Assembly (NCBI GenBank): GCA_013151045.1 | Contig: JAADIY010000042.1 | Coordinates: 20,153-84,152 of the forward strand | DNA: 64,000 nt | Source: Gammaproteobacteria bacterium | GTDB lineage: Bacteria; Pseudomonadota; Gammaproteobacteria; GCA-2400775 | Direction: 5' to 3' | Part shown: in pieces, positions 29,445 to 47,411 of the stretch | Position numbering within the stretch: position 1 is the first letter of the stretch | Layout: every line of letters begins with the position of its first letter | Made by a program: the position numbers and the translations under genes | The notes under the pieces: model-generated | Told to the model about the DNA's origin: nothing | Databases searched by the model: none | The model's input: only the letters and a program-made list of their open reading frames with translations

Positions 29445-29482
29445 TCATGCGGATAAATACTGTTAGTAAACGAATTAGAGTC

Positions 29483-29525
29483 CGGCATGGCTGGGTTACG
29501 AATTCTCGCCGCCCAGGCCATACCG
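29483..29525 (-). terminator. Stem-loop after csoS1 genes (partial terminator or mRNA stabiliser)
   Basis: CGGCATGGCTGGG ... CCCAGGCCATACCG imperfect stem without a U-tract. Confidence 0.45.
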
Positions 29526-29540
29526 CGCCTCGCCATCGTA

Positions 29541-29834
29541 TTACGCCGCGGTATTACCTAGTACTGGTTCCACTTCTTTGTGTGGACGCGCGATAATATG
29601 AGCAGCAACAAGACCGTCACCCACTCTTTCACAAGCATCCGCACCAGCACGAACTGCTGCGTTAACCGCACCGGTTTCGCCACGTACTAAAACAGTGACA
29701 TAACCACCACCAACAAATTCACGTCCGATAAGACGAACTTCTGCTGCTTTAGTCATCGCATCTGCTGCTTCAATAGCAGGAACCAGACCACGAGTTTCAA
29801 TCATACCTAATGCAATACCATATTCATTTGCCAT
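29541..29834 (-). CDS. csoS1: Alpha-carboxysome shell hexamer CsoS1
   Basis: 'GIALGMIETRGLVPAIEAADAMTKAAEV...FVGGGYVT...IIARPH'. Confidence 0.97.
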   Translation of the reverse strand: MANEYGIALGMIETRGLVPAIEAADAMTKAAEVRLIGREFVGGGYVTVLVRGETGAVNAAVRAGADACERVGDGLVAAHIIARPHKEVEPVLGNTAA

Positions 29835-29870
29835 GGATGTATCTCCTCTTGATAAAATAAATCGTTAAAA

Positions 29871-30185
29871 TTAAGAACGAGCTGTGTTGGCGCTACCAGC
29901 CATATCCAAAACAGGTTCCACTTCTTTGTGTGGACGAGCAATAATGTGAGCTGCAACAAGACCATCACCCACTCTTTCACAAGCATCCGCGCCAGCGCGA
30001 ACCGCTGCGTTAACCGCACCAGTTTCACCACGAACCAAGACGGTGACATAACCACCACCAACAAATTCACGCCCAATCAAACGCACTTCTGCTGCTTTAG
30101 TCATGGCATCAGCTGCTTCGATCGCAGGAACTAAGCCACGAGTTTCAATCATGCCTAATGCGATTCCGTAGTTACCTTCACTCAT
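29871..30185 (-). CDS. csoS1: Alpha-carboxysome shell hexamer CsoS1 (paralog with longer tail)
   Basis: Core identical to neighbour; likely start MSEGNY after GGAG RBS. Confidence 0.95.
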   Translation of the reverse strand: MSEGNYGIALGMIETRGLVPAIEAADAMTKAAEVRLIGREFVGGGYVTVLVRGETGAVNAAVRAGADACERVGDGLVAAHIIARPHKEVEPVLDMAGSANTARS

Positions 30186-30233
30186 CGTTATATCTCCGTC
30201 TTTGTTACTCAATAATAATAGTTACTAACTAAG

Positions 30234-30527
30234 TTATGCTTTTATCACTTGCTCTTCAGGCATGCCTTTTGTCTGCCCGGTTTCTTCATCCCAATAATCA
30301 ATAATGCCGTTAATCGTCAGGTCTGTTAGGGTTTTAGGATTATCGCAAGCAAAACGTGCCGCGGAACCTGTTGAAACAAACACCCAATTACCTGGTCGTG
30401 CACCACAAGGATCTGCTGCCACTTGTAACTTGCCACGACTATCACGCAGTATGCGCAAACTGCTTTGCAACAAACCAGGATGACGGCGTGTGCAAACCAA
30501 TGATGCTACAACACGCATAATATCCAC
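30234..30527 (-). CDS. csoS4B: Shell vertex pentamer CsoS4B
   Basis: 'MDIMRV...TRRHPGL...GNWVF..GSAARFA...LTDLTI.GIIDYW'. Confidence 0.9.
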   Translation of the reverse strand: MDIMRVVASLVCTRRHPGLLQSSLRILRDSRGKLQVAADPCGARPGNWVFVSTGSAARFACDNPKTLTDLTINGIIDYWDEETGQTKGMPEEQVIKA

Positions 30528-30820
30528 TAATCTTTCTGCCCTGCTTGTTCGGTTTTTTCTTCCTCAGCTTCAGACTTTTCTTCGTCCCAGTAATCAATAA
30601 TCCCAACAATGGTTAGATCACTTGGATACTCTTTACTGCCTGCTGCCTCACGTGCTGCCGAACTACCCACACAAATCACCCAATCACCCGGGATACAACC
30701 AACTGCATCCACTGCAACTAAGCGTGACGAGCCATCTAATACCACTTGCAAATGCTTATGGTTCATCGTTGCAATACGATTAGTCGCCACCAAAGGCTTC
30801 TCAACTTTACAAATCTTCAT
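30527..30820 (-). CDS. csoS4A: Shell vertex pentamer CsoS4A
   Basis: 'VEKPLVATNRI', 'VAVDAVGCIPGDWVICVGSSAAREAAGSK.YPSDLTI'. Confidence 0.93.
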   Translation of the reverse strand: MKICKVEKPLVATNRIATMNHKHLQVVLDGSSRLVAVDAVGCIPGDWVICVGSSAAREAAGSKEYPSDLTIVGIIDYWDEEKSEAEEEKTEQAGQKD

Positions 30821-32403
30821 CAGTGTGTCTCCTGATTAGCAGGCAACAAAGAACAGCCAACCATCTCTGCTCTGCCATCTGACGAACAATCACGCACCAT
30901 TAAAAGCGTATGTAACAACCCTTTTTCAGCGTAATCGCTATAACGACTGCGTAACGCTGCATCTAGTTGCTGACAGCGCGCTTCTGCACGCTCTCTCGCA
31001 GCCGGTACCTTGCTGTGGTAATCATTACGAATCACCACCGGAATAGGTAAACCACGATTTGCGTTTAACTTAGTAAATATCTTTATTCCTACGTCCATAT
31101 CTTGAGCACCTTCTTCTACCGTACTCAAGTAGGCAAAATAGGTTAAGTTGCGTAAACGCACCTCTTCAAAACCTATACCCATACCAATAAAACATTCTTG
31201 ATGGCCAATATCGCTATAACAGCCTTGATGATATTGACGCACATAATCAATTTGCGAAATATTTTTACAAAGTAAATAAGCTGCTAACTTTTTCATACCC
31301 TCATCAGGTAATGAAGCACCCTGCTCTGCACTATGCTTTTCTATATAACTTGTTATGCATGCCTGTGCATTACTAGCAGATTCGTTATACGTTGCGTCGT
31401 ACAACTCAGCCGCATCGACATAACGACTCGCATCAATATCGCCGTTAGCGTCAGGCAAGTGCAAACGCAATACATCGTTATCGGTGTCGATACCGACCAG
31501 CAATAAGTCAATCGATGCGCCACAACAAAAACTATTTTCAACACCTTGGCGAAAATCCTCTAAACGGCCAATGGCTGCTTGAGCTGCGCGCTGCACATCA
31601 CTACCGTGCGCTGCACAACCTTCTGTATCTGGATGTGATGAACTAAAATGATAAGCTGCCACTTTCAGATAACGCGTTGGCGCATCTGCTGCATTAGGCT
31701 TACCTTCGCGATAGCGAAGCATCTCAGTCTTAACCCATTTTTGCAGGCTGTCATCAACATCAAACATAGCACCAGCATAGGACTTACGTCTTACCACCTT
31801 ATGTGGCAAACGTAATACATAGCGAATAACGTGTGCTAAACGCCCATCTGCACAAGGCGATACGTCCATCAAATGGAAACCACATTGCTCAAGAAACGTT
31901 TGAAATTCATTATCATCTGACGCACTTAACGGACTATTCATAAAGAAGTCATCCGACATGTGACGAAACGTCTCAAATACACACCAGCAATACAGTGAGC
32001 CAATATCTAGAGGCTTCACCCAACTATCTTCTAACAAATGTTCAGGCAACTCAAAACCAAGCTTATTACGCGCAAGCTGCTGCGCACGCTCAATAAAACC
32101 TGAATCGTGTTGCACTGAGGATATTTCCTGCAATACAACTTCAATGTCAGAAAAAGATCCTTTTATCTTCTGCTCATAACTGTATAAATGCTTATTTTCA
32201 TCATTACGTGAAAACGGATGCCCTGTTCTATTTGAAGCAACTCTACTGCTAGTCGTCCCATTTGAATTACCAACTGAATTATCGGAGAACAACGCCTGCG
32301 CACCAGCATAAGAAGCTGCGCCCTGTTGCCGAGGCAACATGGCGCGTTTCAGCGGTACTGCTCGCTGCAACGTGCTTCTATTTTTTACTCTGCTGTTGAA
32401 CAT
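30820..32403 (-). CDS. csoS3: Carboxysomal beta-carbonic anhydrase CsoSCA
   Basis: 'SPCADGRL', 'HFSSSHP..GCAAHGS', 'NLTYFAYL.TVEEGA.DMDVG'. Confidence 0.95.
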   Translation of the reverse strand: MFNSRVKNRSTLQRAVPLKRAMLPRQQGAASYAGAQALFSDNSVGNSNGTTSSRVASNRTGHPFSRNDENKHLYSYEQKIKGSFSDIEVVLQEISSVQHDSGFIERAQQLARNKLGFELPEHLLEDSWVKPLDIGSLYCWCVFETFRHMSDDFFMNSPLSASDDNEFQTFLEQCGFHLMDVSPCADGRLAHVIRYVLRLPHKVVRRKSYAGAMFDVDDSLQKWVKTEMLRYREGKPNAADAPTRYLKVAAYHFSSSHPDTEGCAAHGSDVQRAAQAAIGRLEDFRQGVENSFCCGASIDLLLVGIDTDNDVLRLHLPDANGDIDASRYVDAAELYDATYNESASNAQACITSYIEKHSAEQGASLPDEGMKKLAAYLLCKNISQIDYVRQYHQGCYSDIGHQECFIGMGIGFEEVRLRNLTYFAYLSTVEEGAQDMDVGIKIFTKLNANRGLPIPVVIRNDYHSKVPAARERAEARCQQLDAALRSRYSDYAEKGLLHTLLMVRDCSSDGRAEMVGCSLLPANQETH

Positions 32404-32489
32404 GACGTTAATCCGTTCTCCAAAAATTCGCTTGTAAATGCTCTAGGATTGATGCTTTAAGTTAATAAACCGTGTCTAGCCAGTTACTA

Positions 32490-34334
32490 TTAACCTCGAG
32501 CACCTCCAGACAATGTGACTGGCGCACCGCTATCAGTATTACCATGGCTTCCAGTAACATTAAGCTCAGCAGGTGCAACATCAACATTACGTTTATTATC
32601 AACACCTGGCATTGCACTGATCGGGCCACGACGAGTTGGGTTTCTCTTCGCTGAAGATCTTCCCTCTGTACCCGTTACACGCTCATTACGATCCCAATCA
32701 TCACCGGTGATATTCATACCGGTCTCCATACCTTCGCCCGTCACACCACGAGCTGGTTTGACGATCTCTACAGGTGCGTTAACATTGCCTGTAGTGTTAT
32801 TAACACGATCACCAAAACGCGCTTCTTCAGTACCGGTTAACTTACCTTCTCCCAATGAGAAAGCACCGCTAACGCGACCTTGCTCATAACGAGAACCCGT
32901 TACAGCATTATGCTCGGTTGTCGTTTGGCTGGCGTGATTAGGTGCGTCAACACTAAAGTTACCCCATGGGGCGCCAGCTAGCGGCTTTGGGAAATCAGAT
33001 TCCCCGATTTGCGCTGGTACTGCACCACATACTTGCTGGTGATCAGTCGCACCAATATATGAAGTACCGGTTAGAGGCTTACATACGCCTTTAGCAGCAC
33101 CGGTTAAATTACCCAAACCAGGTTGAATACCCGTAATATCACGACCTTCATTACCGCGACGTAATTCACTACGTGCTAAAGCAACTTTTGCTTGCCTAGG
33201 CTCACAATACTTTTCATATTGCTCTGAACCAGCATAAGGTGTACCGGTCACCGCTTTACAGGTGCCCGCTTCATCACCAGTTACGTGTTCTGATCGCGCA
33301 GGTTTTGAACCTGATACGATTGTGCCGCGACTGGTTTGTGAAAAACTAATTTTTGCTGGACCAGTGTCTGGCTTAACACCGCAAAACTGTTCAAAGTGTT
33401 CAGTACCAAGATACTCCGTACCTGTCACGTTTTTGCAACTACCGCGCTCATCACCAGTAACACTATCACTACGTCCAATAGAACTCGCCGTTGTAATATT
33501 ACCGCCACGTGCCAAAGCGCTAGTTAGCACTTTTGACGGCACATTAAACTGCTTATTATCACTTTGACAATAACTCGCAAAAACATCATCTGACAAATAA
33601 TCTGTACCAGTAACTGAACGGCATAAACCAATTTCGTCGCCGGTTGTCTTAGCACTATGTGCCACCTGCGTACCCGTTACTTCTTCAGTGACTGCAGGTT
33701 TTGGACGGTTACCGCGAATAGGTGTCGACTTTGCTTTCACTGCACCACCACCTTTAACACTACGTTGTGCTCGCACACTACGTGCCAGATCACGGCTTGA
33801 GATATCTGGGTTTTGTGAACGCGCTACCTGCGCAGAACTCACTCCACTACTCATAATCTCTACACCTTTTTTACCATGTGCGGCCAGCGCATGGCGACGT
33901 GCACGTGAATTCATACGGCCTGAGTTGCTTGGCGATACGACGTTCACTTTTTTCATTTGTGTTGGCACTGATGCTGGCTTAGTAAATATTGCTGCTGCTG
34001 ATGCCGCACCAGCTTTACACTTGCCTTCACCATTGCAACCGCAACCACAACCTTTAGCTGTAGCCACTTTCGCTTTCGCACGTGCCACACGTTGACGGTC
34101 TGGCGCTGCCACACCGGCTTTACCTTTTGTCGACATTTGTCGACGTCGAGCCAGCGATTCTTGACGGCAGCTACCGAAAGTGCTTGAAGAAGCGCTAGCA
34201 CTACGACGCGGAGCAGGAGCAGCAGATGCGATTGCAGCGACGGGTGCGCTAGCGATTGCATTGCTTTTACCTTGAGTCTGAGCGTTGCGTCGTGCTCTTG
34301 CAGCACTGCGTCCTGACAGATCTTTAATGGCCAT
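32490..34334 (-). CDS. csoS2: Carboxysome scaffold CsoS2 (614 aa)
   Basis: Four Arg-rich N-peptides, (V/I)TG...C M-repeats, C-terminal VTLSGGARG. Confidence 0.95.
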   Translation of the reverse strand: MAIKDLSGRSAARARRNAQTQGKSNAIASAPVAAIASAAPAPRRSASASSSTFGSCRQESLARRRQMSTKGKAGVAAPDRQRVARAKAKVATAKGCGCGCNGEGKCKAGAASAAAIFTKPASVPTQMKKVNVVSPSNSGRMNSRARRHALAAHGKKGVEIMSSGVSSAQVARSQNPDISSRDLARSVRAQRSVKGGGAVKAKSTPIRGNRPKPAVTEEVTGTQVAHSAKTTGDEIGLCRSVTGTDYLSDDVFASYCQSDNKQFNVPSKVLTSALARGGNITTASSIGRSDSVTGDERGSCKNVTGTEYLGTEHFEQFCGVKPDTGPAKISFSQTSRGTIVSGSKPARSEHVTGDEAGTCKAVTGTPYAGSEQYEKYCEPRQAKVALARSELRRGNEGRDITGIQPGLGNLTGAAKGVCKPLTGTSYIGATDHQQVCGAVPAQIGESDFPKPLAGAPWGNFSVDAPNHASQTTTEHNAVTGSRYEQGRVSGAFSLGEGKLTGTEEARFGDRVNNTTGNVNAPVEIVKPARGVTGEGMETGMNITGDDWDRNERVTGTEGRSSAKRNPTRRGPISAMPGVDNKRNVDVAPAELNVTGSHGNTDSGAPVTLSGGARG

Positions 34335-34375
34335 ATTTGTTTATCCCATGCGTTATCGAGAAAACCGAGATGGAA

Positions 34376-34393
34376 GTGGTGCCAAAGCACCAC
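34376..34393 (-). terminator. Hairpin between cbbS and csoS2
   Basis: GTGGTGC-CAAA-GCACCAC perfect 7-bp stem. Confidence 0.5.
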
Positions 34394-34406
34394 ATCAACC
34401 TTCTTA

Positions 34407-34754
34407 TCAAGCAGCCTTACCGCGATACGCTACAAAGCAAACACCTTGGCTTTGCGTGTAGTTGTCATAACCAATCAAACGTACATGATGATCTGGGTAT
34501 GCGCGATGGCACGCTTCTAACTCAGCAACTACGTTACCAAGATCGGTTTCACCGAAGAACGGTAACTTCCACATTGGCCAGTAAACACTACTTACTAGCG
34601 CTGGATCTTCGTGCTCAATTGATGGTGTTAAACCTTGACTCAACATATAGTTAATTTGGGCATAAACTTCTTCTTGCGAAAACGGCGGTAAAAACGAAAA
34701 AGTTTCTAACGTCTGAGCAGTACGGTAATCACCCATTTCTGCATTTGATTTCAT
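34407..34754 (-). CDS. cbbS: RuBisCO small subunit (form IA, carboxysomal)
   Basis: 'ETFSFLPP', 'YWPMWKLPFFGE', 'HHVRLIGYDNYTQSQG'. Confidence 0.97.
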   Translation of the reverse strand: MKSNAEMGDYRTAQTLETFSFLPPFSQEEVYAQINYMLSQGLTPSIEHEDPALVSSVYWPMWKLPFFGETDLGNVVAELEACHRAYPDHHVRLIGYDNYTQSQGVCFVAYRGKAA

Positions 34755-34799
34755 TGCTGTCTCCTGAATATATTGCGAATCTATTAGGGATTAATTAAC

Positions 34800-36209
34800 T
34801 TAGGCGTCAAGCTTGTCTACGGTTTCAAATTCGAAGACGATCTCTTTCCAAGTTTCCATAGCGATTGCGAGTTCTGGGCTATGTTTTGCAGCACCTTCTA
34901 GAATATCGCGACCTTCACGCTCTAGTTCACGGCCTTCGTTACGCGCTTTAACACACGCTTCCAAAGCAACACGGTTTGCAGCAGCACCCGCAGCGTTACC
35001 CCAAGGATGTCCTTGAGTACCACCACCGAACTGAAGAATAGAATCATCGCCGAAGATCTCAACCAGCGCTGGCATATGCCATACGTGGATACCACCAGAA
35101 GCAACAGCAAAGACACCAGGCATTGAGCCCCAATCTTGATCAAAGAAGATACCGCGTTTGCGATCTTCAGGAATAAATGATTCACGTAACTGATCAACAA
35201 AACCTAATGTTGAAGCACGATCACCCTCAAGCTTACCAACAACCGTACCCGTATGGAGATGATCACCACCTGACAAACGTAAGCACTTAGCTAGTACACG
35301 GAAGTGAATACCGTGATGCGGGTTACGATCGATAACTGCATGCATGGCACGATGAATATGCAACAATATACCGTTATCACGACACCATTTAGCCAAACCA
35401 GAGTTGGCGGTAAAACCACCCGTCAAAAAGTCATGCATGATCACTGGCTGACCAAGCTCTTTGGCAAACTCAGCACGCTCATACATTTCTTCAGGTGTAT
35501 TAGCCGTTACGTTTAAGTAATGACCTTTAATCTCGCCAGTTTCAGCTTGTGCTTTTTCTACTGCCGCAGCAACAAACTCGAAACGGTTACGCCAGCGCAT
35601 GAATGGCTGGGAGTTGATGTTTTCGTCATCTTTGGTCAGATCCAAACCACCACGCAAACATTCGTAAACAGCACGACCGTAGTTTTTAGCAGAAAGACCC
35701 AGCTTAGGTTTAATCGTACAACCCAACAATGGACGCCCATATTTGTTTAGCTTGTCACGCTCAACTTGGATACCACTTGGTGGCCCAAGGCACGTTTTAA
35801 CAAATGCGATTGGGAAGCGAATGTCTTCGAGACGCAAGGCTTTAATTGCTTTAAAGCCGAACACGTTACCAACCAATGAGGTCAATACGTTAACAACTGA
35901 ACCTTCTTCAAAAAGATCAATTGGATAAGCAATGAAAGCATAGAAACAAGTGCTATCACCTGGCACATCTTCGATGCGATAGGCACGGCCTTTATAAAAT
36001 TCCATATCGGTCAATAACTCAGACCACACCGTACTCCAAGTACCGGTAGATGATTCTGCCGCTACGGCTGCAGCTGCTTCATTATGAGGAACACCTTCTT
36101 GTGGCGTAACCTTGAAACATGCTAACAAATCCGTATCAAGTGGCACGTAATCCGGAGTCCAGTACACATCACGGTACTCTTTAACACCCGCATCGTATTT
36201 CTTTCCCAT
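34800..36209 (-). CDS. cbbL: RuBisCO large subunit form IA(c)
   Basis: [31 protein letters not shown] active-site motif. Confidence 0.99.
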
Positions 36210-36526: not shown

Positions 36527-36649
36527 ATGCCACTGAACCACATGCAGCCAAAAATAAGTGAACTCGACAATATTATTCGTGCAGCGCAGAAAGGTGATGA
36601 AGCTGCGTTCGAAGAATTACTCAATCACCGCTATGAAAGGCTTTGTTGA
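36527..36649 (+). pseudogene. N-terminal fragment of an ECF sigma factor
   Basis: MQPKISELDNIIRAAQKGDEAAFEELLNHRYE resembles the ECF N-terminal region; truncated where the VWA remnant begins. Confidence 0.6.
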
Positions 36650-37320
36650 ACGCAAACGTGATAAAGACATCTTTTTATCAGCCCTAGGTTTTGGCCAAGG
36701 AAATTATAACGACCACACCATGCAATCTTTAGCGCAAAAAATGTTGGTTGATCAGGCGGCAGAAGCGCTATTTACTATCGCCAAAGACGTAAAGATTCAA
36801 ATTGAATTTAACCCTACAACCGTCAGCGAATATCGCCTTTTAGACTATAAAGCTCGCGCTCTCAATCGTGAAGATTTTAACAACGATGCCGTAGATACTA
36901 GCGATATTGGTGCTGGCCATAGTATTACCGCAATCTATAAAATTACAGCCAAAAGCGCCAATTCCGGACTAATTGACGAAAGTCGCTATCAAGCCAAACC
37001 AAGCAGTAGAGATATCACAGGCAAATATGGTTTTCTAAAGATGCGCTATAAACGGCCTGAATCAGATAGTTCTGAGCTTATCACGACAACAATTGCGAAC
37101 AGCAATACAAAAGCAGGTCTACAACTGGCCAACGAGATTCAATTTTCAACTTCTGTTGTGGCTTTTGCACAACTCTTACGCGGCGGTCAATACACAAATA
37201 ATTGGGGTTACGATCATGCACTAAAACTTGCTCAATCTCATCAAAGGCGAAGACCTCTATGGTCATCGCACAGAGTTTGTACAATTAATACCTAAAGCTA
37301 AAATCGCTGACGAATTATAA
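36633..37320 (+). pseudogene. C-terminal remnant of a YfbK-like VWA/DUF3520 protein
   Basis: 'LSALGFGQGNYND..MQ', 'FTIAKDVKIQIEFNP..V.EYRL', 'DFNNDAVD..DIGAGHSITAIY'; N-terminus missing; true C-terminus KGEDLYGHRTEFVQLI is in another frame, ending at 37320. Confidence 0.75.
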
Positions 37321-37387
37321 TCCTAATAAAAATATGTCGAGGGATTTCTGTGCCATTCCCTCGGTATTGCGACCAACAACAACTTCG

Positions 37388-38374
37388 CTAAAAAGGACTC
37401 GGCCTAGGTGTATCAACACCAGACGCAGGTAATGTAGGCAATGGAAATGAAGGTTGTACACCTGTTAAGGTTTTCAGAAACGCAACGACACGAGCAGTCT
37501 CATCGTCGTTAAACTGAATACCTAATTGCACACGGCCCATAGTATTCACTGCTTCTTCCAAAGTTTTAATCGCACCATCATGAAAATACGGATATGTAAG
37601 CTCTATATTTCGCAGCAACGGAACTTTAAAAACATTGTCATCTATCAACTCTCCTGTTATCGCCGATCTGCCACGTGACGGGTGGGTCGTTTTATAAGGC
37701 TCAAACACGCCAAGCTTTTGAAAAGACTGTCCGCCAACACCAGGACCGTTATGACAATTCGTACAACCTACATTTTTAAAAATTTTATAACCAGATAACT
37801 CATATTCGCTAATCGCATTTTTGTTGCCCAACAACCACATATCGAATGGTGAATTAGGAGTAACTAATGTTTTTTCAAACTCCGCTATAGCCGACGCGAC
37901 GCTAGCTATAGTAATAGCTCCATCATCGAATACTTGTTTAAATTCGGTCACATACCCTGGTATCGTTTTTAGCACATCGGCCACCAATACATGAGGTGTT
38001 GCCATTGAAGCAGGATTTTCTATTGAGCTACGTGCCTGCTCCTCAAGCGTTGCCGCGCGGCCATCCCAATATTGAGAAAAATTTAAACTTGAATTTAAAA
38101 CGGTAGGCGTATTGATCCGCCCTTTCTGCCATTTATCACCAATTGGAAACTGTAAATTATCCACCCCGCCTAAGCTTAAGTTGTGGCATAAGTTACAGGA
38201 AAAATGGCCAGACTGTGATAGCCTACGCTCATAGTATAATTTTTTTCCTAACTCAGATTTTGCAAGGTCTATTAATTTAGGTGCACGCACCGGAAATATA
38301 GGCTCTTCCTTCGCAAAGGTTGAGCTTGAAGCAAACAAAACAACTAATAACAGACAAACAATAAGTCTTTTCAT
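37388..38374 (-). CDS. Di-haem cytochrome c peroxidase paralog 2 (degenerate peroxidatic site)
   Basis: Signal peptide, CNLCH and CTNCH, FKVPLLRN, PYFHDG, Met ligand; IGDKW and NPASM replace IGHxW and NPxEM. Confidence 0.88.
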   Translation of the reverse strand: MKRLIVCLLLVVLFASSSTFAKEEPIFPVRAPKLIDLAKSELGKKLYYERRLSQSGHFSCNLCHNLSLGGVDNLQFPIGDKWQKGRINTPTVLNSSLNFSQYWDGRAATLEEQARSSIENPASMATPHVLVADVLKTIPGYVTEFKQVFDDGAITIASVASAIAEFEKTLVTPNSPFDMWLLGNKNAISEYELSGYKIFKNVGCTNCHNGPGVGGQSFQKLGVFEPYKTTHPSRGRSAITGELIDDNVFKVPLLRNIELTYPYFHDGAIKTLEEAVNTMGRVQLGIQFNDDETARVVAFLKTLTGVQPSFPLPTLPASGVDTPRPSPF

Positions 38375-38389
38375 TACCTTCTCCAGGTT

Positions 38390-39382
38390 CTATAAAAACG
38401 GCTCAGGTAGTGGCGTATCTGGCCCTGATGGTGGCAATGTTGGAATATTGAACGACGGTTGCTCGCCTGTGAGTGTTTTCAAAAAAGCGACGACGCGAGC
38501 ATTTTCTTGTCGTGTAAAAGTCACCCCTCTTTGAACACGCGCCATCGTATCAACAGCCTCCTCCAAGGTTTCAACTTCGCCATCATGAAAATAGGGGAAA
38601 GTAAGTTCGATATTGCGCAGCAAAGGCACTTTAAACACATTAATATCTGATACCTTACCAGTGACATCAGCCTTACCTTGCGCAGGGTGATCTGTCTCAT
38701 ATACATCTTTGATACCTAGTCGTTGAAACGATTGGCCACCGACACCAGGACCGTTATGACAAGCAACGCAACCGCTGGTTTTAAACGTTAAATAACCAGC
38801 CAACTCATAATCATTTATTGCCGATGGGTCACCTAGCAACCATTGATCAAAACGAGAGTTAGGGGTAATTAAAATTTTCTCAAATTCAGCAATCGCACTG
38901 GTCACGCGGTCTATCGTTATTTCAGCACTACCAAACACTTGCCTAAACTCAATGACATACCCCGGTATTGTCTCTAATACCTTTATTGCTAATACATGGT
39001 TGGATGCCATCTCTATAGGATTAACAATAGGTGCTTCCGCTTGCTCCTTTAAATCTGCCGCCCTGCCATTCCAAAATTGCGCTAAATTCATACTTGAATT
39101 CAACACCGTTGGAGTGTTAATTCCACCCTTTTGCCAATTGTGTCCAATAGAAAATTGCATATTATCGACACCACCCAAACTCAGGTTATGACACGAGTTA
39201 CATGAAATATGCCCTGATAATGATAAACGCGGATCAAAAAATAATTTTTTGCCTAGCTCCACCTGAGCCAGGTTTATATTTTTAACAGGTTGAATGGGAG
39301 AAATCGGCTCTACTGCCAACGCAGTAGACACGGACAAGAAACAACATACTGTAAAAATTGCATTAGATAATTTATTTTTCAT
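38390..39382 (-). CDS. ccp: Di-haem cytochrome c peroxidase paralog 1 (canonical)
   Basis: Signal peptide, CNSCH and CVACH, IGHNW, QFWNGR, EQA..NPIEM, PYFHDG. Confidence 0.9.
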   Translation of the reverse strand: MKNKLSNAIFTVCCFLSVSTALAVEPISPIQPVKNINLAQVELGKKLFFDPRLSLSGHISCNSCHNLSLGGVDNMQFSIGHNWQKGGINTPTVLNSSMNLAQFWNGRAADLKEQAEAPIVNPIEMASNHVLAIKVLETIPGYVIEFRQVFGSAEITIDRVTSAIAEFEKILITPNSRFDQWLLGDPSAINDYELAGYLTFKTSGCVACHNGPGVGGQSFQRLGIKDVYETDHPAQGKADVTGKVSDINVFKVPLLRNIELTFPYFHDGEVETLEEAVDTMARVQRGVTFTRQENARVVAFLKTLTGEQPSFNIPTLPPSGPDTPLPEPFL

Positions 39383-39409
39383 AGTGATTTATCCTAATAA
39401 AGTTGCATT

Positions 39410-39748
39410 TCAGTCATTGCTATAACGAATTGTTTTAACCGGTAGAACATGTGACGTCGCTGAAATACCATGTAATCTAAGAAGCGTAGACCTATGAAAC
39501 GGCAAACTTTTTGTTATAGATTTTTCTTTGTATTTCGCCCTATGAATTGCTAGTTTAACTTCCACATTAAGCTCAGACTCGGACTGGGCCACCATAAAAT
39601 TTTGTTTTCCCGTAGAACTAGCGCTTACCATCCCGACAATCAGGAACAACAACAATGAGAAAACAATATAAATAACTACATTTACACCTATGACAGAAAA
39701 TATAGTCTTCGTATAGCCTGCAAAATCTCTACTACTTTCATCACCCAT
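39410..39748 (-). CDS. Hypothetical single-TM membrane protein
   Basis: Starts 2 nt after DUF1348 stop; one long hydrophobic segment then a basic tail. Confidence 0.55.
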   Translation of the reverse strand: MGDESSRDFAGYTKTIFSVIGVNVVIYIVFSLLLFLIVGMVSASSTGKQNFMVAQSESELNVEVKLAIHRAKYKEKSITKSLPFHRSTLLRLHGISATSHVLPVKTIRYSND

Positions 39749-39750
39749 AA

Positions 39751-40167
39751 TTAATGCCCTATACGCCTATCGTCCGCTTTAATTTCAATATCACTTGCAC
39801 TGACATCGCGCAGACTCACCAGACCATTACCATCAAATTCCCATTGCTCGCTGCCGTGAGTACGCATCCATTGACCTGACATCGCATGCTGCCATTCGCA
39901 CTCAAAACGTATAGAGATGCGATTGTCGGTATAAGTCCAAAGCTCCATTTCTAAACGGTAATGCAGCTCTCTTAACCATTTACGAGCAAGAAATTCATTA
40001 ATGGCTTCGTAACCACTAAGGCATTCATCTCCAATACGCCATTCAGACTGCTCGCTATATGCCTGCACCACGATCTCAGGAGATCGCGTATTCCAATTCT
40101 CCTGAACTTGTTGCACTTTCATTTGCGCAACTTCATTGGTAAACGACAATTTGAGCAATCCGGTCAT
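39751..40167 (-). CDS. DUF1348 / SnoaL-NTF2-like protein (divergent)
   Basis: 'WNTRSPE.V..AYS..SEWR', 'FLARKW.REL.YRL..ELW', 'RISIRFE.EW', 'GSEQWEFD'; AGGA RBS before MTGLL. Confidence 0.82.
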   Translation of the reverse strand: MTGLLKLSFTNEVAQMKVQQVQENWNTRSPEIVVQAYSEQSEWRIGDECLSGYEAINEFLARKWLRELHYRLEMELWTYTDNRISIRFECEWQHAMSGQWMRTHGSEQWEFDGNGLVSLRDVSASDIEIKADDRRIGH

Positions 40168-40220
40168 ATACATTCCTAAAATTTTGAGCCATGCCTGTAT
40201 TCTTCTTAATAACTTCTATC

Positions 40221-40335
40221 TCATATTTCGTACCAACCTATAAAATCCATGTAAAACAATGAGTTAAGTAACCTCTAAAACCTCAATAATTTGAGTTCCA
40301 CAATTTTTTATGGTTTAATCCTCAAAATATTGGGG
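40221..40335 (-). promoter_or_regulatory. sigma54 promoter with IHF site and three enhancer palindromes
   Basis: TTGGTACGAAATATGA (GG-N10-GA, 40221-40236); IHF-like AAACAAtgagTTA (40254-40266); CCTCAA-N4-TTGAGT-like boxes at 40281, 40298 and 40320. Confidence 0.6.
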
Positions 40336-40342: not shown

Positions 40343-42184
40343 ATGATTAAACCTTCATGCAAGCAACACAAATGGGAGTTTCAAGACGTACCCGCCATGC
40401 TTGCGGTACTCGACGAACAGCTCATTTGCCGTCACGCAAGTTTGGGCTGGCGTAACCACCTTGGTCTGCCAAAAAATGATGGGGCAGAACTACTATTAGA
40501 AGACTTATTACTGCTCGACGATGAAGTTGAACTGACAAATTTACTTACAGATATTTTTACTCACAAAAACTCTGTGCATGACATTTCTGTTTCCCTATTG
40601 GGCAAACTGGGTGTTGCTCAGGGGTTACTCGCTGCCTGCTTAATTCAACAAAGCAATGAGCCCCCTCACCTACTGCTCAACGCGACCTGCGGAGAACAAC
40701 TCGATAAAACACTTGCCGAACTGCGTCGCATACAATCTGAGCACGGCTCTATCCTCAGTGCCGTAGGAGAAGGTATTTATGGACTAGACAAGAATGGCAT
40801 GACTATATTTGCCAATGCTGCATCAACAGAAATCGTTGGATGGAAAATAGAAGATATTCTCGGCAAACCTGCACATGACGTACATCACCACACTCATGCA
40901 GACGGCACACCCTACCCTCGTGACGATTGCCCAGTTTATGCAGCACTAAAGGATGGAAAAATCCATCATGTGGACGATGAAGTTTTCTGGCATAGCAATG
41001 GCTCTGCCGTGCCGGTTGAATATACCAGTACACCTATCCTACAAGATGGTGAACTGAACGGTGCTGTTGTCGTATTCCACGATATTTCTGAACGTAAAGA
41101 AATTGAACGACAACGTGAAGCCGCATACCAAGAAATTAACGCCTTAAAAGAAAAACTGGAATTAGAGCGTGATTACTTACGTGATGAAATTAATGTTACC
41201 TCTGACTTCGGTGAGATTATTGGGGATAGTTCTGCACTGCAACATACCATGGCACAAATCGAAGCCGTTGCATCCACTCAAGCTAATGTATTAATACTGG
41301 GTGAATCCGGTGTAGGCAAAGAAATGATTGCACGTGCCATTCATGCTAAAAGTGAACGCTCAGAAAAGCCTTTGGTAAAAGTAAACTGCGCTTCTATTCC
41401 TAAAGAACTATTCGAGAGCGAATTTTTTGGGCATATCAAAGGGGCATTTACGGGCGCCCATCGCGATCGCACCGGACGTTTACAGCTTGCTGCCGGCGGA
41501 ACAATTTTTCTAGATGAAATTGGCGAAATCCCATTAAGCCTACAAAGTAAGTTATTACGTGCGTTGCAAGAACATGAGTTTGAACGTGTGGGTGATGATA
41601 AAACCATTAAAGTTGATGTACGTATTGTTGCCGCCACCAATACTGATCTGGAAGCTGAAGTAAAAGCAGGACGCTTTCGCGAAGATTTATTTTATCGTCT
41701 CAGTGTGTTCCCTATTAAGGTGCCGCCACTGCGAGAACGTATTAAGGACATTGCACCCTTAGCACAACACTTTCTAAACCGAAGTTGTGCTGAATTAGGA
41801 CGCGATCAAATCAAGCTTTCTAAACAGCAAGTTACAAGACTGCAACAACATAAATGGCCTGGCAATATTCGAGAACTAAAAAATATCATCGAGCGTGCTG
41901 TTATTCTAAGCAAAGGAAACCGAGCAAGACTCGACTTGGTTTTGCCTGACCAATCTCAAGGGGAAGAACCTGAAGATAACAATCAGATACCTGACTCTAC
42001 ATTCGTTACCGATGCAGAATTTCGCCAGCTGGAAAAAACCAATATTATCGCGGCACTTAAATATGCCAACTGGCAGGTATGGGGAGAAAATGGAGCAGCA
42101 GAATTGCTCGGCATCAAACCCTCTACACTAACTTATAGAATGAAAAATTTTGGCATTAACAAAACTAAAACACCTTATGAGTGA
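40343..42184 (+). CDS. PAS-domain sigma54-dependent enhancer-binding protein (Fis HTH)
   Basis: PAS/PAC, GESGVGKE, intact GAFTGA, FLDEIGE, FREDLFYRL, WPGNIREL, C-terminal HTH. Confidence 0.93.
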   Translation: MIKPSCKQHKWEFQDVPAMLAVLDEQLICRHASLGWRNHLGLPKNDGAELLLEDLLLLDDEVELTNLLTDIFTHKNSVHDISVSLLGKLGVAQGLLAACLIQQSNEPPHLLLNATCGEQLDKTLAELRRIQSEHGSILSAVGEGIYGLDKNGMTIFANAASTEIVGWKIEDILGKPAHDVHHHTHADGTPYPRDDCPVYAALKDGKIHHVDDEVFWHSNGSAVPVEYTSTPILQDGELNGAVVVFHDISERKEIERQREAAYQEINALKEKLELERDYLRDEINVTSDFGEIIGDSSALQHTMAQIEAVASTQANVLILGESGVGKEMIARAIHAKSERSEKPLVKVNCASIPKELFESEFFGHIKGAFTGAHRDRTGRLQLAAGGTIFLDEIGEIPLSLQSKLLRALQEHEFERVGDDKTIKVDVRIVAATNTDLEAEVKAGRFREDLFYRLSVFPIKVPPLRERIKDIAPLAQHFLNRSCAELGRDQIKLSKQQVTRLQQHKWPGNIRELKNIIERAVILSKGNRARLDLVLPDQSQGEEPEDNNQIPDSTFVTDAEFRQLEKTNIIAALKYANWQVWGENGAAELLGIKPSTLTYRMKNFGINKTKTPYE

Positions 42185-42254: not shown

Positions 42255-45200
42255 TTAATCTACTATCAAATTTCCATTTGACAACAAATTATCAACGATC
42301 TGCTGGTCACTTAGTGATCCCCCTGCTGTCAGGTCAGTACCACTAAGCGTAATTTCTTGCGTTGATTCAAACGTACCAGAACCATCAGTATCAATACTAA
42401 TGACCGTACCACCACTCCCGTCTTGCTCAAAATGCAAATAATCAGTAAGCGTATCGGACTCTTCACCATGTAGCAGATCTGCCAGGTTGAGTTTGTCGCC
42501 ACCTGCACCTGCGGTAAAGTCTGTAATGGTATCGCTTGCCGGATCTGCTAGCGTACCCTCATCATCATTACGCCAGACAAAAGTATCACTATCACTACCA
42601 CCAGTCAGCGTATCATCACCTTTGCCACCATAAAGGAAATCGATTCCTGCACCACCAAGCAACGTATCATCACCATCTTGACCAAACAATTGATCGTCGC
42701 CATTCAAACCATTTATAGTATCGCCAGTATTGCTACCGACCAACCTGTCATTTCCTGACGTTGCAGGATCTTGACCATCTACTGTGCCATCACCATCACT
42801 ATCGGTAGAGATAAAGTCTGCCTCACCATCTCCATTACTATCTGTTGGTACTGTTATTCCACCAGGGCCATAGACATCATCTAGTCCGTCGTTATTAGCA
42901 TCAATTCCGCTTGGTGCGACGTAACTACTGACGGCTTGTGCTTCAACATTATCTAAAATTCCATCGTTATCACTATCAACATCTAAACTATTGATAATGC
43001 CATCATTATCAACATCGTTATTAATAAAAGTGCCTGTACCCGAAATATCAAAACGATAATCCACGCCGTTGACTGCAATAAAGTCTGTACCAGCACCGGT
43101 TACTCCCTGCACAATAAATCCAGGCACTCCACCACCAATATCAACCACCGTGACTGTAACGTTTACAGGGGAAGTCGTCGCTCTAAATATAGAATCTTCA
43201 ACACCGCCATTTAAATCTGTCTGAAGTCCAGTAAACGACGTATTTGCCCCACTACCGTCTGAATTAATGAAAGTAAGATCAAAAAACTCATTTGCGCCGT
43301 CACCATTAATATCACCCCGTGCAAACACGTTATTTATTGTTACTGATGAGCCTATAGCAACACCAAATGATGATAAATTGATTGCCTGAGTTGCAGTGCC
43401 ACTGCCATTTGGTGAAATATTTGAGTCTGACGTAGTGGTAGTAAACAGACTAGTGACAAGCTGGGCATCTTCTATTGTATCGATGATACCGTCATTATCA
43501 TCATCAATATCGTCGATATCACTGATGCCATCTCCATCGCTGTCCACATCAATAAACTCAGCAATACCATTGCTGTCGCCATCAACTGGACTTAAACCAG
43601 CCGGTACATAAGCATCGTCCAAGCCATCATTATTTGCATCGATTCCGCTTGGTGCAACATAACTACCGATTGCTTGTGCTTCTACATTATCGAGTATGCC
43701 ATCGTTATCACTATCAACATCTAGACTATTAATGATGCCGTCGCCATCAGCATCGTTACTAGTGCCTATACCCTCAATATCGAAACGATAATCGACACCC
43801 ACAAAACCATTGAAACTGCCTACAGCACCCGTAGTTGAACCTGCCACACTAATACCAGGCACACCACCACCAATATCAATTACTTGAACATTTAGGTCCA
43901 CTGAATTTGTGACTGGGCTAAACCCAAGATTCTGCGATCCTGTATTAACAGCGCCTGTTGTCACTCCGCCATTAAATAACAAAGTGAATGTCTCAGTACC
44001 GCCATTCAAATCGCCTTGCGCAAATAAATTTGAAATACTAACTGTATCGCCAATAGCTATACCAAATGTAGATAAATTAATATTTTGAGAACTGTTGCCA
44101 CCGTTGGCAGGAATATTCGAATCAGTAGTGGTTGTTGTAAATGGTGATGCAACTAAAAATGCATCTTCAACCGTATCAAGAATTCCGTCATTATCATCAT
44201 CAATATCAATAACGTCGATAATACCATCATTATCAGTATCTAAGCCGCGAACCACTGACAAAGTCACCGTACCATTTGCCTGGTCACCATCACCGTCTAC
44301 GGTTACGAAATTGATAATCTCCTGAATAGAAGTGTTTAGTGCAAGACTGTCATCAGCAGTGTATTGATATTCACCTGTCATAAAATCGAAATTAAGAGTT
44401 CCACCATTACTAGTGACCATATCAAGCATTGCGCCAGATACCACCCCACTGCCATTACTTGGCGTGATCGTATCTGCTGTTGGATCATAATCATAAGTAA
44501 TTCCGTCAATAGTGATGGACATTGTTACACCACCATCGGCACCAAAAGCATTGCTGATTGCACCAAACAAGTTACCACTAGCTGTCGCATCAATGGTCGA
44601 TAGCAAGGTATTAGCCAATATACTTGCGTCAGTTACAATCACACCTGCTCTGTCAGTATCGTTGATACCGTCATAAGCCAACGGATCCAAGAAACCTTGG
44701 TCTGCTGCTGTCAAATCACCACCGAAACCAACAGCGAATGCGTCAATTTCATTAGCCACTAAGAAATCAGTATACGCTGTGATTTCAGCACCCGTTATAC
44801 CCGATGTGCCTTCAGAGCCTCCACCTGTCTGGGGTTCACCATCCGATATAAAATAAGATACATTAGTAACTGTTGGATCACTATCATTCAGCGCTCCCGA
44901 TGCCGAAAAAGAAGATTGGAATTCTGCTACAGCTAAATCATAGTTAGTGCCGCCACCAGTATTGAAAATTGCCGATCTAGAGCCTGAACTACCATCGCCA
45001 ATTAATGCCAATGCTTCTGAAGCACTAACCCAGGTTGATAATGAACTCGACGCAGTGCTAAAGGTTGTAATTTGTACCCGTACGTCACCAAGGTTAGCGT
45101 AAGTTTGAATCACATCACGCACGCTTTCTAACGCCAGTTGCAAGCGCTCAATATTTACGGTACCGCCACTTCCATCATCTACTGCAACCGAACTACCCAT

Positions 45201-47411
45201 ACTGCCTGAGACATCAATCACAAAACTCAAGTTGGTGTTTGATGGAGGTATAACCAGAGATAAATCTAAATTACCACTTATGGGACTATCATCTTCAATT
45301 GATATGTTAATAACATCATCAGCAGAAGCATCACCATCACTGACACGAATACCAACATCAAAATTAAGTACGTTTTCCCCATCATCTGTAGTACCCGGCA
45401 AATTAGGATGATCAAGCGAACCTAGCAATGTCACTTGGTAACCGCCGTCGTTATCGATTTCAAAACGAATAATATCGTTGCCACCAGCAGAACCTGTCAA
45501 TGTTTGATCGCCATTACTTAAGATAAATGTTATGGCTTGCCCGCCTGATGTCAGCCCTGAAGGTCCAGAACCAGTAAATGTAGCCGTCAGAGAAGCACTC
45601 TCAATATCTGTTGCACTATAGGTACCTGTAAATACGGCACTATCAGTCATATCTGCTGGATTACCAACAGTATCAGCGATACCGGCAGCCAAACCTTCTT
45701 CTGATACTACTGCCGAATCTACGGCAGAAATTACTGGAGCATCATTAACCGCATTAACCGTAACGGTTAGGGTCGCCGTATCAAAACCACCCTGACCATC
45801 AGCAATAGTATACGTAACTGTATCAGTGCCGTTAAAATCAGGATTCGGTGTATAAGTGATCGTACCGTTTGCATTAACTATAGCCGTACCATTAGTACCA
45901 TCGGTAACTTGGGTAACTTGCAGTGTGCCACCATCACCATCGCTGTCGTTCGGTAATACAGCAACCGTTACCGCGTTATCTTCGTTTGTCGTAGCACTAT
46001 CATTATTAGCAACTGGTCCATCATTGATCGAATTAACCGTAACACTGACTGTGGCAATTTCAGTGTCACCGGCATCTGTTGTTACCGTATAGGTATAACT
46101 ATCTGTACCGTTAAAGTTTAAATTAGGTGTATAAGTAACTTCACCATTGCTGCCTATAGTTACAGTACCATTAGCGCCCTGAGTGACCCCTGTGATCATC
46201 GCATTCGGTCCAAAACTGTCATTAGTAAGCACATTTAGTGTGCTAGCCATATCTTCATCAGTAGTTAAGGTGTCGTTTACTGCATCTACTACACTGTTAA
46301 TTATAATATTGACTGTTGCTGTATCTGTGCCACCATTACCATCAGTGATTTGATAAGTAAAACTATCGGTACCATTAAAGTCTTCATCCGGGACGTAATC
46401 AAACGTGCCGTCTGTATTTAGAGTCAAGGAACCATTCGTAGGACCACTAACCGGAATAGTATTGACAGATAATGTGTCACCATCAATATCGTTATCTACT
46501 CCACTATCAGTAAGAACATTACCTGATAAAGTGACGTCCTCATTAACAGTAAAGCTATCATCCACCGCATCCGGGCCATCATTCACGCCGCTAACATTCA
46601 CCGTCACCGTCGCCGTATCCGTGCCGCCATTGCCATCACTGATGGTGTAGTCAAACGTCGCAACACCATTGAAATTCGCCGTCGGCGTAAACGTCACCGT
46701 CCCATCAACGTTCAACACCACACTGCCGTTACTCGCGTTACTCACTCCACTGATCGTTAACGTATCTCCATCAAGATCCGTATCATTCGGATCCACAATG
46801 TCCGCAACTCCCAGCGTCAACGGCGTATCTTCGGCCGTACTCGCCGTATCATCCACCGCATCCGGGCCATCATTCACCGGCGGTGCTACAGGAGGTGCAA
46901 CACCGGTAGGTGAACCATCTCCGGCAAGCGCAGGAAGCTCATCAGCCCCGACAATATCCTCGAAGTCGGTAAATTCACGACCAAAAGCAAATGGCGTCTC
47001 ATCTGTATCAACGATACCTTCTCTACCATCACGATCATAAATCGATGCTTGGTTTAACGCGTTTGCTTCACCTTGATTTTGATTGCCTGCGGCCGGTGCT
47101 TCTAAATCAGCAAGGTCAACACCTTCAATGATTGATTGCTGTAACGCTAGAATTTGATCTACTTGGTTATCATCGAAAACACCTAGATCATAAGAGACTG
47201 TCTCATCGAGCAATATTTCAGCTTGCTCGCCTACTGCTAGCTCTCGACCACTATAGAAAGTTACGACTATATTCGTGCCGTCACCGGTAATAAGTACATC
47301 ACCGTCTTTGACAATATCACCAATATTAATAACTCTAATGATGCCATCAGCACTACGAACCTCAGCGCTACCAGCTAATTCAGTGATATATCCAATACTT
47401 TTTGTAGTCAT
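42255..47411 (-). CDS. LapA-like T1SS adhesin (retention module, Ig/cadherin-like repeats, VWA, TSP3-like Ca-binding repeats, RTX, T1SS signal)
   Basis: Retention module with PAAG cleavage site, repeated 'VNDGPDAVDD..FTY.I.DG.GG' units, VWA 'FVIDVSGSM', DxDxDG arrays, GGxGxD nonapeptides, 'DTITDF'. Confidence 0.9.
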   Translation of the reverse strand: MTTKSIGYITELAGSAEVRSADGIIRVINIGDIVKDGDVLITGDGTNIVVTFYSGRELAVGEQAEILLDETVSYDLGVFDDNQVDQILALQQSIIEGVDLADLEAPAAGNQNQGEANALNQASIYDRDGREGIVDTDETPFAFGREFTDFEDIVGADELPALAGDGSPTGVAPPVAPPVNDGPDAVDDTASTAEDTPLTLGVADIVDPNDTDLDGDTLTISGVSNASNGSVVLNVDGTVTFTPTANFNGVATFDYTISDGNGGTDTATVTVNVSGVNDGPDAVDDSFTVNEDVTLSGNVLTDSGVDNDIDGDTLSVNTIPVSGPTNGSLTLNTDGTFDYVPDEDFNGTDSFTYQITDGNGGTDTATVNIIINSVVDAVNDTLTTDEDMASTLNVLTNDSFGPNAMITGVTQGANGTVTIGSNGEVTYTPNLNFNGTDSYTYTVTTDAGDTEIATVSVTVNSINDGPVANNDSATTNEDNAVTVAVLPNDSDGDGGTLQVTQVTDGTNGTAIVNANGTITYTPNPDFNGTDTVTYTIADGQGGFDTATLTVTVNAVNDAPVISAVDSAVVSEEGLAAGIADTVGNPADMTDSAVFTGTYSATDIESASLTATFTGSGPSGLTSGGQAITFILSNGDQTLTGSAGGNDIIRFEIDNDGGYQVTLLGSLDHPNLPGTTDDGENVLNFDVGIRVSDGDASADDVINISIEDDSPISGNLDLSLVIPPSNTNLSFVIDVSGSMGSSVAVDDGSGGTVNIERLQLALESVRDVIQTYANLGDVRVQITTFSTASSSLSTWVSASEALALIGDGSSGSRSAIFNTGGGTNYDLAVAEFQSSFSASGALNDSDPTVTNVSYFISDGEPQTGGGSEGTSGITGAEITAYTDFLVANEIDAFAVGFGGDLTAADQGFLDPLAYDGINDTDRAGVIVTDASILANTLLSTIDATASGNLFGAISNAFGADGGVTMSITIDGITYDYDPTADTITPSNGSGVVSGAMLDMVTSNGGTLNFDFMTGEYQYTADDSLALNTSIQEIINFVTVDGDGDQANGTVTLSVVRGLDTDNDGIIDVIDIDDDNDGILDTVEDAFLVASPFTTTTTDSNIPANGGNSSQNINLSTFGIAIGDTVSISNLFAQGDLNGGTETFTLLFNGGVTTGAVNTGSQNLGFSPVTNSVDLNVQVIDIGGGVPGISVAGSTTGAVGSFNGFVGVDYRFDIEGIGTSNDADGDGIINSLDVDSDNDGILDNVEAQAIGSYVAPSGIDANNDGLDDAYVPAGLSPVDGDSNGIAEFIDVDSDGDGISDIDDIDDDNDGIIDTIEDAQLVTSLFTTTTSDSNISPNGSGTATQAINLSSFGVAIGSSVTINNVFARGDINGDGANEFFDLTFINSDGSGANTSFTGLQTDLNGGVEDSIFRATTSPVNVTVTVVDIGGGVPGFIVQGVTGAGTDFIAVNGVDYRFDISGTGTFINNDVDNDGIINSLDVDSDNDGILDNVEAQAVSSYVAPSGIDANNDGLDDVYGPGGITVPTDSNGDGEADFISTDSDGDGTVDGQDPATSGNDRLVGSNTGDTINGLNGDDQLFGQDGDDTLLGGAGIDFLYGGKGDDTLTGGSDSDTFVWRNDDEGTLADPASDTITDFTAGAGGDKLNLADLLHGEESDTLTDYLHFEQDGSGGTVISIDTDGSGTFESTQEITLSGTDLTAGGSLSDQQIVDNLLSNGNLIVD
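46556..46877. repeat. 31-bp exact direct repeat bounding a 291-bp GC-rich Ig unit
   Basis: TATCATCCACCGCATCCGGGCCATCATTCAC at 46556-46586 and 46847-46877. Confidence 0.85.

Follow-up and report, generated by a model that had tools for sequence, protein, structure and literature searches.

Two adjacent genes for di-haem bacterial cytochrome c peroxidases (bCCPs), CCP1 and its downstream neighbour CCP2, were studied in a 64,000-nucleotide stretch of DNA from an uncultured gammaproteobacterium (positions 20,153 to 84,152 of contig JAADIY010000042.1, assembly GCA_013151045.1), called the window below. The bCCPs are H2O2 peroxidases of the periplasm that use a cytochrome c or a cupredoxin as electron donor; they work as homodimers, and the Gln/Pro/Glu of their pocket is strictly conserved. 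CCP1 has this pocket, while CCP2 has lost its Glu and its Pro. The pair sits in a conserved operon and has a single origin, the losses can be placed in order, and the downstream copy evolves faster than the upstream one, though under constraint. From the sequences we infer that the two genes are co-transcribed, that CCP2 has lost peroxidase turnover and that it has a physical or functional partnership with CCP1. The explanation that we favour, with a probability of roughly 45%, is that CCP2 is a di-haem partner of CCP1 with little or no catalytic activity, which either forms part of a mixed dimer or relays electrons.

Active-site residues of CCP2

Both open reading frames (ORFs) were found in the ORF list of the window exactly where the original prediction had placed them, and their translations contained the strings that it had quoted, i.e. 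IGHNW and EQAEAPIVNPIEM in CCP1, IGDKW, EQARSSIENPASM and QYWDGR in CCP2, and GGVDNxQF and GPGVGGQSFQ in both. The two proteins could be aligned without gaps (64% identity) and matched the Pfam family CCP_MauG with 191.6 bits (CCP1) and 171.8 bits (CCP2), the curated cut-off being 25.6. As judged from the sequence, both N-termini look like Sec export signals, in which a few basic residues are followed by a hydrophobic segment and a site of small residues.

The best solved matches of CCP2 were the CCP of N. europaea (PDB 1iqc; E 2.6e-119, gap-free across residues 23-328) and CcpA of Shewanella oneidensis (3o5c; E 3.4e-107, also gap-free). When CCP2 was aligned with 1iqc, Asp80 came to lie under the His of IGHKW and Ser123 under the Glu of NPKEM. 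Because there is no gap in this alignment, the changes at the His and Glu positions are true substitutions, as had been proposed. The possibility that the residues are merely shifted is thereby ruled out.

CCP2 resembles the two solved enzymes in its length, two-haem architecture, Trp, Ca-site, Met ligand and C-terminal tail. It differs from them at the peroxidatic (P) haem, since both have the loop His and the full Phe/Gln/Pro/Glu/Met cavity, while CCP2 has Asp and Tyr/Gln/Ser/Ser/Met (Tyr102, Gln113, Ser117, Ser123 and Met124). Three of the five cavity residues conserved in bCCPs (Phe97, Gln108, Pro112, Glu118 and Met119 in the numbering of PMC10094543, seen in excerpts) are altered in CCP2 (Phe to Tyr, Pro to Ser and Glu to Ser), and all five are kept in CCP1. 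The original prediction was right that the loss of the Glu matters, but it had overlooked the Pro to Ser and Phe to Tyr changes.

CCP2 has the CCP_MauG domain, two CxxCH motifs, a His/Met-coordinated electron-transfer (E) haem, the inter-haem Trp and the Asn/Thr/Pro of the Ca site that characterize bCCPs; with Asp80 at the distal His column, it lacks the distal His of the classical, reductively activated subgroup. The residues C60/C63/H64, C204/C207/H208, W103, N88, T260/P262 and M279 were invariant in eight sequences of the downstream clade described below, which agrees with the earlier claim that both CxxCH motifs, the Trp, the Ca-site residues and the Met ligand had been preserved. The roles of the equivalents of M279, W103, N88, T260 and P262 were taken from PMC10094543 and PMC6405878, in both cases from part of the paper.

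The lost Glu had been presented as a key residue, and the literature bears this out for its acid-base role. Single Glu and Gln variants of bCCPs are inactive according to excerpts of PMC10094543, and in PMC6405878 Glu variants of MauG and BthA (E277Q in the latter) are inactive as well, the Gln/Pro/Glu triad being conserved across bCCPs, MauG and BthA. Because Glu, Pro and Phe have all been lost from its pocket, CCP2 most likely lacks efficient Glu-assisted O-O cleavage.

MauG and BthA are CCP_MauG superfamily enzymes with bis-Fe(IV) chemistry. They have the superfamily fold of CCP2 and the distal triad, but they carry a Tyr ligand on the six-coordinate haem, where CCP2 has Met279 instead; the Tyr-His arrangement is thus absent from CCP2. 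The NCBIfam models for MauG and MbnH gave 167.5 bits (cut-off 443.85) and 137.9 bits (cut-off 362.85), respectively.

The distal His column in the CCP family

The distal His had also been listed as a key peroxidatic residue. This part of the prediction was not supported. In classical bCCPs the distal His is not catalytic: it is the sixth ligand of the P haem and must leave before peroxide binds, and the N. europaea enzyme requires no reductive activation (both from excerpts of PMC10094543). We also surveyed the family in an alignment of 152 CCP domains, which were taken from the best 150 representatives of clusters at 50% identity; a protein could contribute several domains, and fragments without the region were skipped. 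The distal His column contained Ile or Val in 83 of these domains, His in 30 and Asp in 6. The two CxxCH motifs were present in 152 and 151 domains, respectively, while the Glu was missing in 22 (about 14%, or one in seven) and the Pro in 32.

Of the 120 homologs nearest to CCP2, 71 combine Asp with Glu, 44 combine His with Glu, and only 5 (P0001-P0005) are Glu-less. Because Asp with Glu is so common, the loss of the His in CCP2 is by itself no sign of a dead enzyme. On these alignments the real anomaly of CCP2 is the loss of Glu and Pro, and the loss of the His says little. The Asp-for-His, Glu-keeping N. europaea-type CCPs (71/120; among P0012-P0120) seem to form a large natural group of 'lock-less' bCCPs, of which we found no characterisation as far as our literature searches went.

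Origin of the pair and order of the losses

The genome that contains the window (G000) belongs to an order with a single genus, which is represented by nine species-level genomes in the collection. The tandem pair was found, in the same gene order, once in G000, once in G007 and twice in G001 (loci a and b), and the upstream copy was canonical in each of these four loci. A fragment of one pair was found at a contig end in G003. The pair was not found in G002, G004, G005, G006 and G008 (5/9 genomes; completeness 75-95%), in which the only CCP is of a third type, 42-44% identical. This third type is present in all 8 other genomes of the genus. In G000, a third CCP_MauG gene lies about 5 kb past the end of the window (G000:C15:88956-89834, plus strand); its product belongs to another subfamily, is 42% identical to CCP2, has Ile at the His column, keeps Gln, Pro and Glu and is devoid of the C-terminal tail.

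In a maximum-likelihood tree of 34 rows (two rows identical to genome copies were left out), the upstream copies formed one clade (support 100/97) and the downstream copies another (94/99); their sister relation was moderately supported (89/46). When compared with 109 background homologs, the two clades had derived residues in common; at position 57, for example, His replaces an invariant Phe, at 76 Thr has become Phe/Tyr, and at 247 Phe has become Asn. Together with the tree, these residues uphold the local duplication proposed from the shared segments of the two proteins. Our reading of these sequences is that the pair arose once, by a single tandem duplication within this uncultured gammaproteobacterial genus. 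The downstream clade amounts to nine sequences only, from one genus and a few metagenome proteins. A metagenome scan with CCP2 as the lone query found no relative, and a scan with the clade alignment returned 80 generic N. europaea-type loci (identity of at most 62%), among which the downstream clade was absent; 2 of these 80 loci contained tandem CCPs of the N. europaea type, with Glu in both copies.

Five downstream-specific changes were found in all eight downstream rows of the tree (Tyr48, Arg50, Thr109, Val/Ile202 and Asp/Glu246) and a sixth, Glu119, in seven of them. Because they are common to the downstream members, these changes are older than the loss of the Glu. The earliest-branching downstream member, from locus b of G001, has retained His, Pro and Glu. 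The remaining seven rows group together (98/95) and are all Glu-less, with S, S, L, V, G, S and G at the column, a pattern most simply explained by a single loss of the Glu followed by drift at the site. Two downstream members also lack the following Met and the NP motif, the NPxEM segment being eroded. Pro117 was lost in 6/8 downstream sequences, and Tyr102 is present in 4/8. The replacement of His by Asp is private to CCP2 and the 96%-identical P0001, as are Ser62 to Leu (within the first CxxCH) and Ser77 to Pro.

 The second pair of G001 (locus b; L036 410-3120, G001:C9) has His, Pro and Glu in both copies. The downstream copy of G007 (L034 1298-2335) has Tyr at the distal His column (VGYKW) and Gly at the Glu column; this Tyr near the P haem recalls the Tyr-ligated haems of the MauG type, but these involve the other haem.

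These data bear on the possibility that CCP2 is an independent H2O2 peroxidase, probably a constitutively open homodimer with Glu119, Asp80 or an ordered water as acid-base catalyst, the pair then being two isozymes that differ in kinetics or electron donors. Asp at the His column would be normal for such an enzyme, given the 71 nearest homologs that have it (all with Glu), and N. europaea-type enzymes need no reductive activation (PMC10094543, in part). Furthermore, Glu119 arose before the loss and coexists with Glu123 in one downstream member, both copies are canonical in locus b of G001, and purifying selection on CCP2 is clear (see below). We nevertheless consider this possibility unlikely, as a single change of the Glu abolished activity in all relatives in which it was assayed (PMC10094543 and PMC6405878), and as Glu119 co-occurs with the canonical Glu elsewhere in the family (14/152 domains). 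Moreover, the varied replacements of the Glu and the erosion of NPxEM in two members disfavour a single redesigned active site; they look like a loss of constraint rather than a new catalytic design.

Selection on CCP2

As measured on the tree from the duplication, the root-to-tip distance was about 0.90 for CCP2 and about 0.42 for CCP1, and the branch leading to CCP2 was long (0.42). The downstream clade evolves about twice as fast as the upstream clade. For the same genome pairs, the pairwise nonsynonymous divergence (dN) was 0.21-0.27 for the downstream and 0.12-0.16 for the upstream copies, i.e. a ratio of 1.5-1.9; this comparison rests on dN only, the synonymous divergence (dS) being saturated in all 12 species-level pairs (proportion of synonymous differences, pS, 0.76-0.91). 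In a sliding-window comparison the acceleration was spread along the whole protein, with maxima at residues 107-118 and 287-298.

Strain variants were obtained from the contigs of four metagenome runs that covered the region, with 40 of 198 sites listed, all in 37353-38297. Among the sites listed, 38 fell in CCP2, with 23 synonymous and 15 nonsynonymous changes, which corresponds to a ratio of nonsynonymous to synonymous polymorphism (pN/pS) of about 0.19; the deepest contig alone contributed 19 synonymous and 12 nonsynonymous sites. Codons 80 and 123 were not touched by any of the variants listed. One metagenome contig (run X3, depth about 9) has a one-base insertion at window position 38984, within CCP1, which represents either a frameshift in that strain or an assembly error.

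These results are difficult to reconcile with the idea that CCP2 is a redundant copy that is turning into a pseudogene, which we hold to be very improbable. The raised nonsynonymous rate, the lost catalytic residues and the five genomes in which the pair was not found would fit with it. However, each of the nine downstream sequences has its full length and an intact set of cofactor sites, neither stops nor frameshifts were found, pN/pS is low, and dN is only 0.21-0.27 where dS is saturated. For these reasons CCP2 is held to be still under purifying selection, which is clear, and decay is unlikely; it is further disfavoured by the early fixation of the downstream-specific changes combined with the present-day constraint. 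The original prediction had described CCP2 as intact, and this was borne out.

A predicted CCP1-CCP2 complex and the case for a partnership

We predicted the complex of mature CCP1 and CCP2, each with its own clade alignment, in three runs with three controls. The interaction score ipSAE was 0.89 in the three runs, compared with 0.00 for the best control. The mark used to call a complex was reached by 116 of 157 solved complexes and by 2 of 215 mismatched pairs. The predicted local distance difference test score (pLDDT) of the partner was 91, and the agreement between contacts was at least 98%. The predicted interface is symmetric and consists of residues 48-84 and 258-271 and the C-terminal tail (307-328). 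It includes W82/W83; this Trp, two residues past the His column, matches the one that takes part, with Gly72 (Gly72/Trp73), in stacking across the monomers of bCCP as described in PMC10094543. The bCCPs dimerise through an interface made up of the N-terminal loop, the Trp and the C-terminal tail. Tyr48 and Arg50, two of the old downstream-specific changes, also fall within the predicted interface. In the downstream clade the conservation was 0.76 at the predicted interface and 0.69 in the rest of the protein, which we counted in favour of a partnership; the corresponding values in the upstream clade were 0.81 and 0.85.

The heterodimer of an active and a pseudo-enzyme subunit that had been put forward is thus compatible with the predicted complex and plausible in the light of this model, although the result may reflect no more than a likeness to solved homodimers. 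In the mechanism that we propose, CCP1 and CCP2 would be made together from a sigma54-type operon, and CCP1 would be the working H2O2 peroxidase of the periplasm. CCP2 has the entire electron-transfer scaffold, from the two c-haems and the His/Met-ligated E haem to the bridging Trp and the Ca site, while its pocket, devoid of the acid-base Glu, the Pro, the Phe and the distal His lock, would most likely no longer cleave peroxide efficiently. It would have been retained beside CCP1 either to complete a dimer of the bCCP type or to relay electrons. A stricter version, in which the two proteins form an obligate asymmetric heterodimer whose Glu-less, always-open di-haem subunit feeds electrons to the catalytic subunit or tunes its activation, seems doubtful to us.

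Several observations weigh against a partnership with a non-catalytic CCP2. Locus b of G001 has the Glu in both copies, so that a pair need not contain a dead copy. Glu119, present in 7/8 of the downstream sequences, could conceivably stand in for the lost Glu. The acceleration of CCP2 is not confined to the pocket. The identity between upstream and downstream copies is the same at the predicted interface as elsewhere, without any signal specific to a heterodimer. Finally, because bCCP homodimers have been solved, the success of the heterodimer model amounts to a likeness, not a proof of binding, and may only mirror these structures.

Genomic context and regulation

The features of the locus are collected in Table 1. 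No terminator-like site was found on the minus strand in the interval between the two CCP genes, and the most likely reading of the gene arrangement is that they are co-transcribed. The order regulator-DUF1348-CCP-CCP recurs in G007 and in locus a of G001. The DUF1348 protein is devoid of a signal peptide. The 112-aa ORF has no counterpart in the related loci, G007 having an unrelated 250-aa gene at this place and G001 nothing; it is a putative gene only. No remnants of the isochorismatase-like gene of G007 were found in window 39300-39800.

Table 1. Features of the CCP1-CCP2 locus, with positions in the window
Feature	Position	Strand	Description
CCP2	37388-38374	-	328 aa; downstream di-haem CCP paralog; N-terminal signal-like segment
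CCP1-CCP2 spacer	38375-38389	-	15 nt from CCP1 stop to CCP2 start; ribosome-binding-site-like GGAGAAGG
CCP1	38390-39382	-	330 aa; canonical N. europaea-type bCCP; H81, F103, Q114, P118, E124, M125
Small ORF	39410-39748	-	112 aa; hydrophobic stretch; no family match
DUF1348 (SnoaL/NTF2-like) protein	39751-40173	-	151.9 bits; first gene of putative operon
Sigma54-type -24/-12-like element	40217-40236	-	TTGGTACGAAATATGAGATA; upstream of DUF1348 gene
Sigma54 enhancer-binding protein with PAS domain	40343-42184	+	Divergent; Sigma54_activat 251 bits, PAS_4 52.3 bits, HTH_8

Near-identical -24/-12-like elements occupy the same place in G007 and in locus a of G001 (three-locus comparison), and rpoN is present in the genome. 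The -12 half of the element departs from what we take to be the consensus, and a strict sigma54 consensus search of the window gave 78 matches for a shuffle mean of 63, i.e. no excess. The sigma54 activator did not reach any NCBIfam equivalog cut-off. Upstream of the sigma54-like element (window 40285-40330, minus strand), TTTGAGGATTAAACCA is followed by a partial inverted repeat; this block, a possible binding site of the activator, also occurs in G007 and, in part, in G001. Locus b of G001 adjoins a divergent Rrf2 regulator that is most similar to NsrR but does not reach its cut-off of 182 bits (150.7 bits), and G003 (L037) shows the same neighbourhood, cut by the contig end.

This context is relevant to another explanation, in which CCP2 would perform a new chemistry at its open, Glu-less, Tyr-lined haem pocket (with nitric oxide, sulfide, hypohalous acids or organic peroxides) or act as a sensor, being expressed with CCP1 for a combined stress response. 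We find it improbable. The PAS-domain sigma54 activator and the NsrR-like neighbour of the sister locus would be consistent with such a role, as would the open access of exogenous ligands to the P haem of bCCPs (PMC10094543, in excerpt) and the habitat of the host, which has a carboxysome/RuBisCO locus and whose DNA was found in vent and marine metagenome runs, no RNA run being among those listed. It would also fit with a pocket that was remodelled in a gene that was not destroyed, the long branch to CCP2 being followed by present-day constraint. Yet the residues of the pocket vary among the downstream members, which speaks against a single, defined new active site, and no substrate-related gene is linked to the pair. 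A first scan of DUF1348 as a functional clue found nothing. DUF1348 is widespread, CCPs stand beside it in only 2/80 loci of species-representative genomes, both of them pairs of the type found in this genus, and the linkage is thus specific to the lineage. The absence of idrAB-like genes, considered below, also counts against a new chemistry.

The flanks consist of an alpha-carboxysome/RuBisCO/DAB locus and a Lap-type adhesin system. The former (window 19602-36209, minus strand) is a complete-looking alpha-carboxysome and CO2-uptake locus with genes for DabA, a DabB-like protein, a bacterial microcompartment (BMC) protein, LysR, SbtA-like, ferritin-like, CsoSCA and CsoS2-like proteins, and the small and large subunits of RuBisCO. 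The latter (window 42255-56598, minus strand) comprises a 1718-aa RTX-like repeat adhesin, a LuxR-type regulator, HlyD, an ABC exporter, a LapD-like GGDEF-EAL protein, a LapG-like BTLCP protease and an OEP-OmpA protein. Between cbbL and CCP2, an ORF on the plus strand (window 36558-37295) matches the YfbK_C domain only (179.2 bits), without the vWA part; the frames upstream of it are rich in stops, and it is probably what remains of a truncated gene.

Comparison with known systems

The IdrP1/IdrP2 proteins of iodate reductase clusters are likewise an adjacent, Sec-exported CCP-like pair kept as a unit, as described in excerpts of PMC8692401. They belong to idrABP1P2, in which idrAB stands for a molybdopterin oxidoreductase and a Rieske protein, and CCP1 and CCP2 do not: neither idrAB-like genes nor a molybdopterin oxidoreductase was found among the ORFs of window 19602-56598 (37 kb). 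Other Glu-less members of CCP_MauG, which are uncharacterised, belong to other subfamilies, while the present pair joins a canonical to a Glu-less member of one young subfamily. In a class-wide census of tandem CCPs (150 of 506 matches), one near-tandem case among the matches listed was a CCP_MauG pair of another subfamily in an unrelated member of another gammaproteobacterial family (G302:C9; L120 1664-2734 and 3289-4332). Both of its copies are Glu-less, with Lys and Gln at the Glu column. An unpublished genome, G047, is counted in this census and in the genome search for the pair, and none of our claims depends on it.

A literature search outside subscription journals turned up neither a natural Glu-less bCCP with a canonical partner nor a bCCP heterodimer, and a term search of the paper on YhjA (PMC10301912) found nothing. 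Tandem CCP-like pairs are known from the iodate reductase clusters, and with about 14% of the family representatives being Glu-less too, the pair described here is a variation rather than something new in kind.

Implications

The distal His 'lock' is a minority feature of the family, which bears on the annotation of 'cytochrome c peroxidase' genes as H2O2 detoxifiers; the one in seven representatives that are Glu-less call for the same caution. The locus described here offers a natural and selectively maintained copy, devoid of Pro and Glu and always located just downstream of a canonical one. With the sister locus, in which both copies have the Glu, it forms a comparative series on what becomes of the di-haem CCP scaffold after the loss of peroxide cleavage, and such a series could address possible roles as electron relay, regulatory subunit or site of new ligand chemistry. 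If the obligate heterodimer proved true, it would be the first natural one among bCCPs and a bacterial enzyme/pseudoenzyme pair born from a homodimer, and locus b of G001, with the Glu in both copies, would be its living intermediate.

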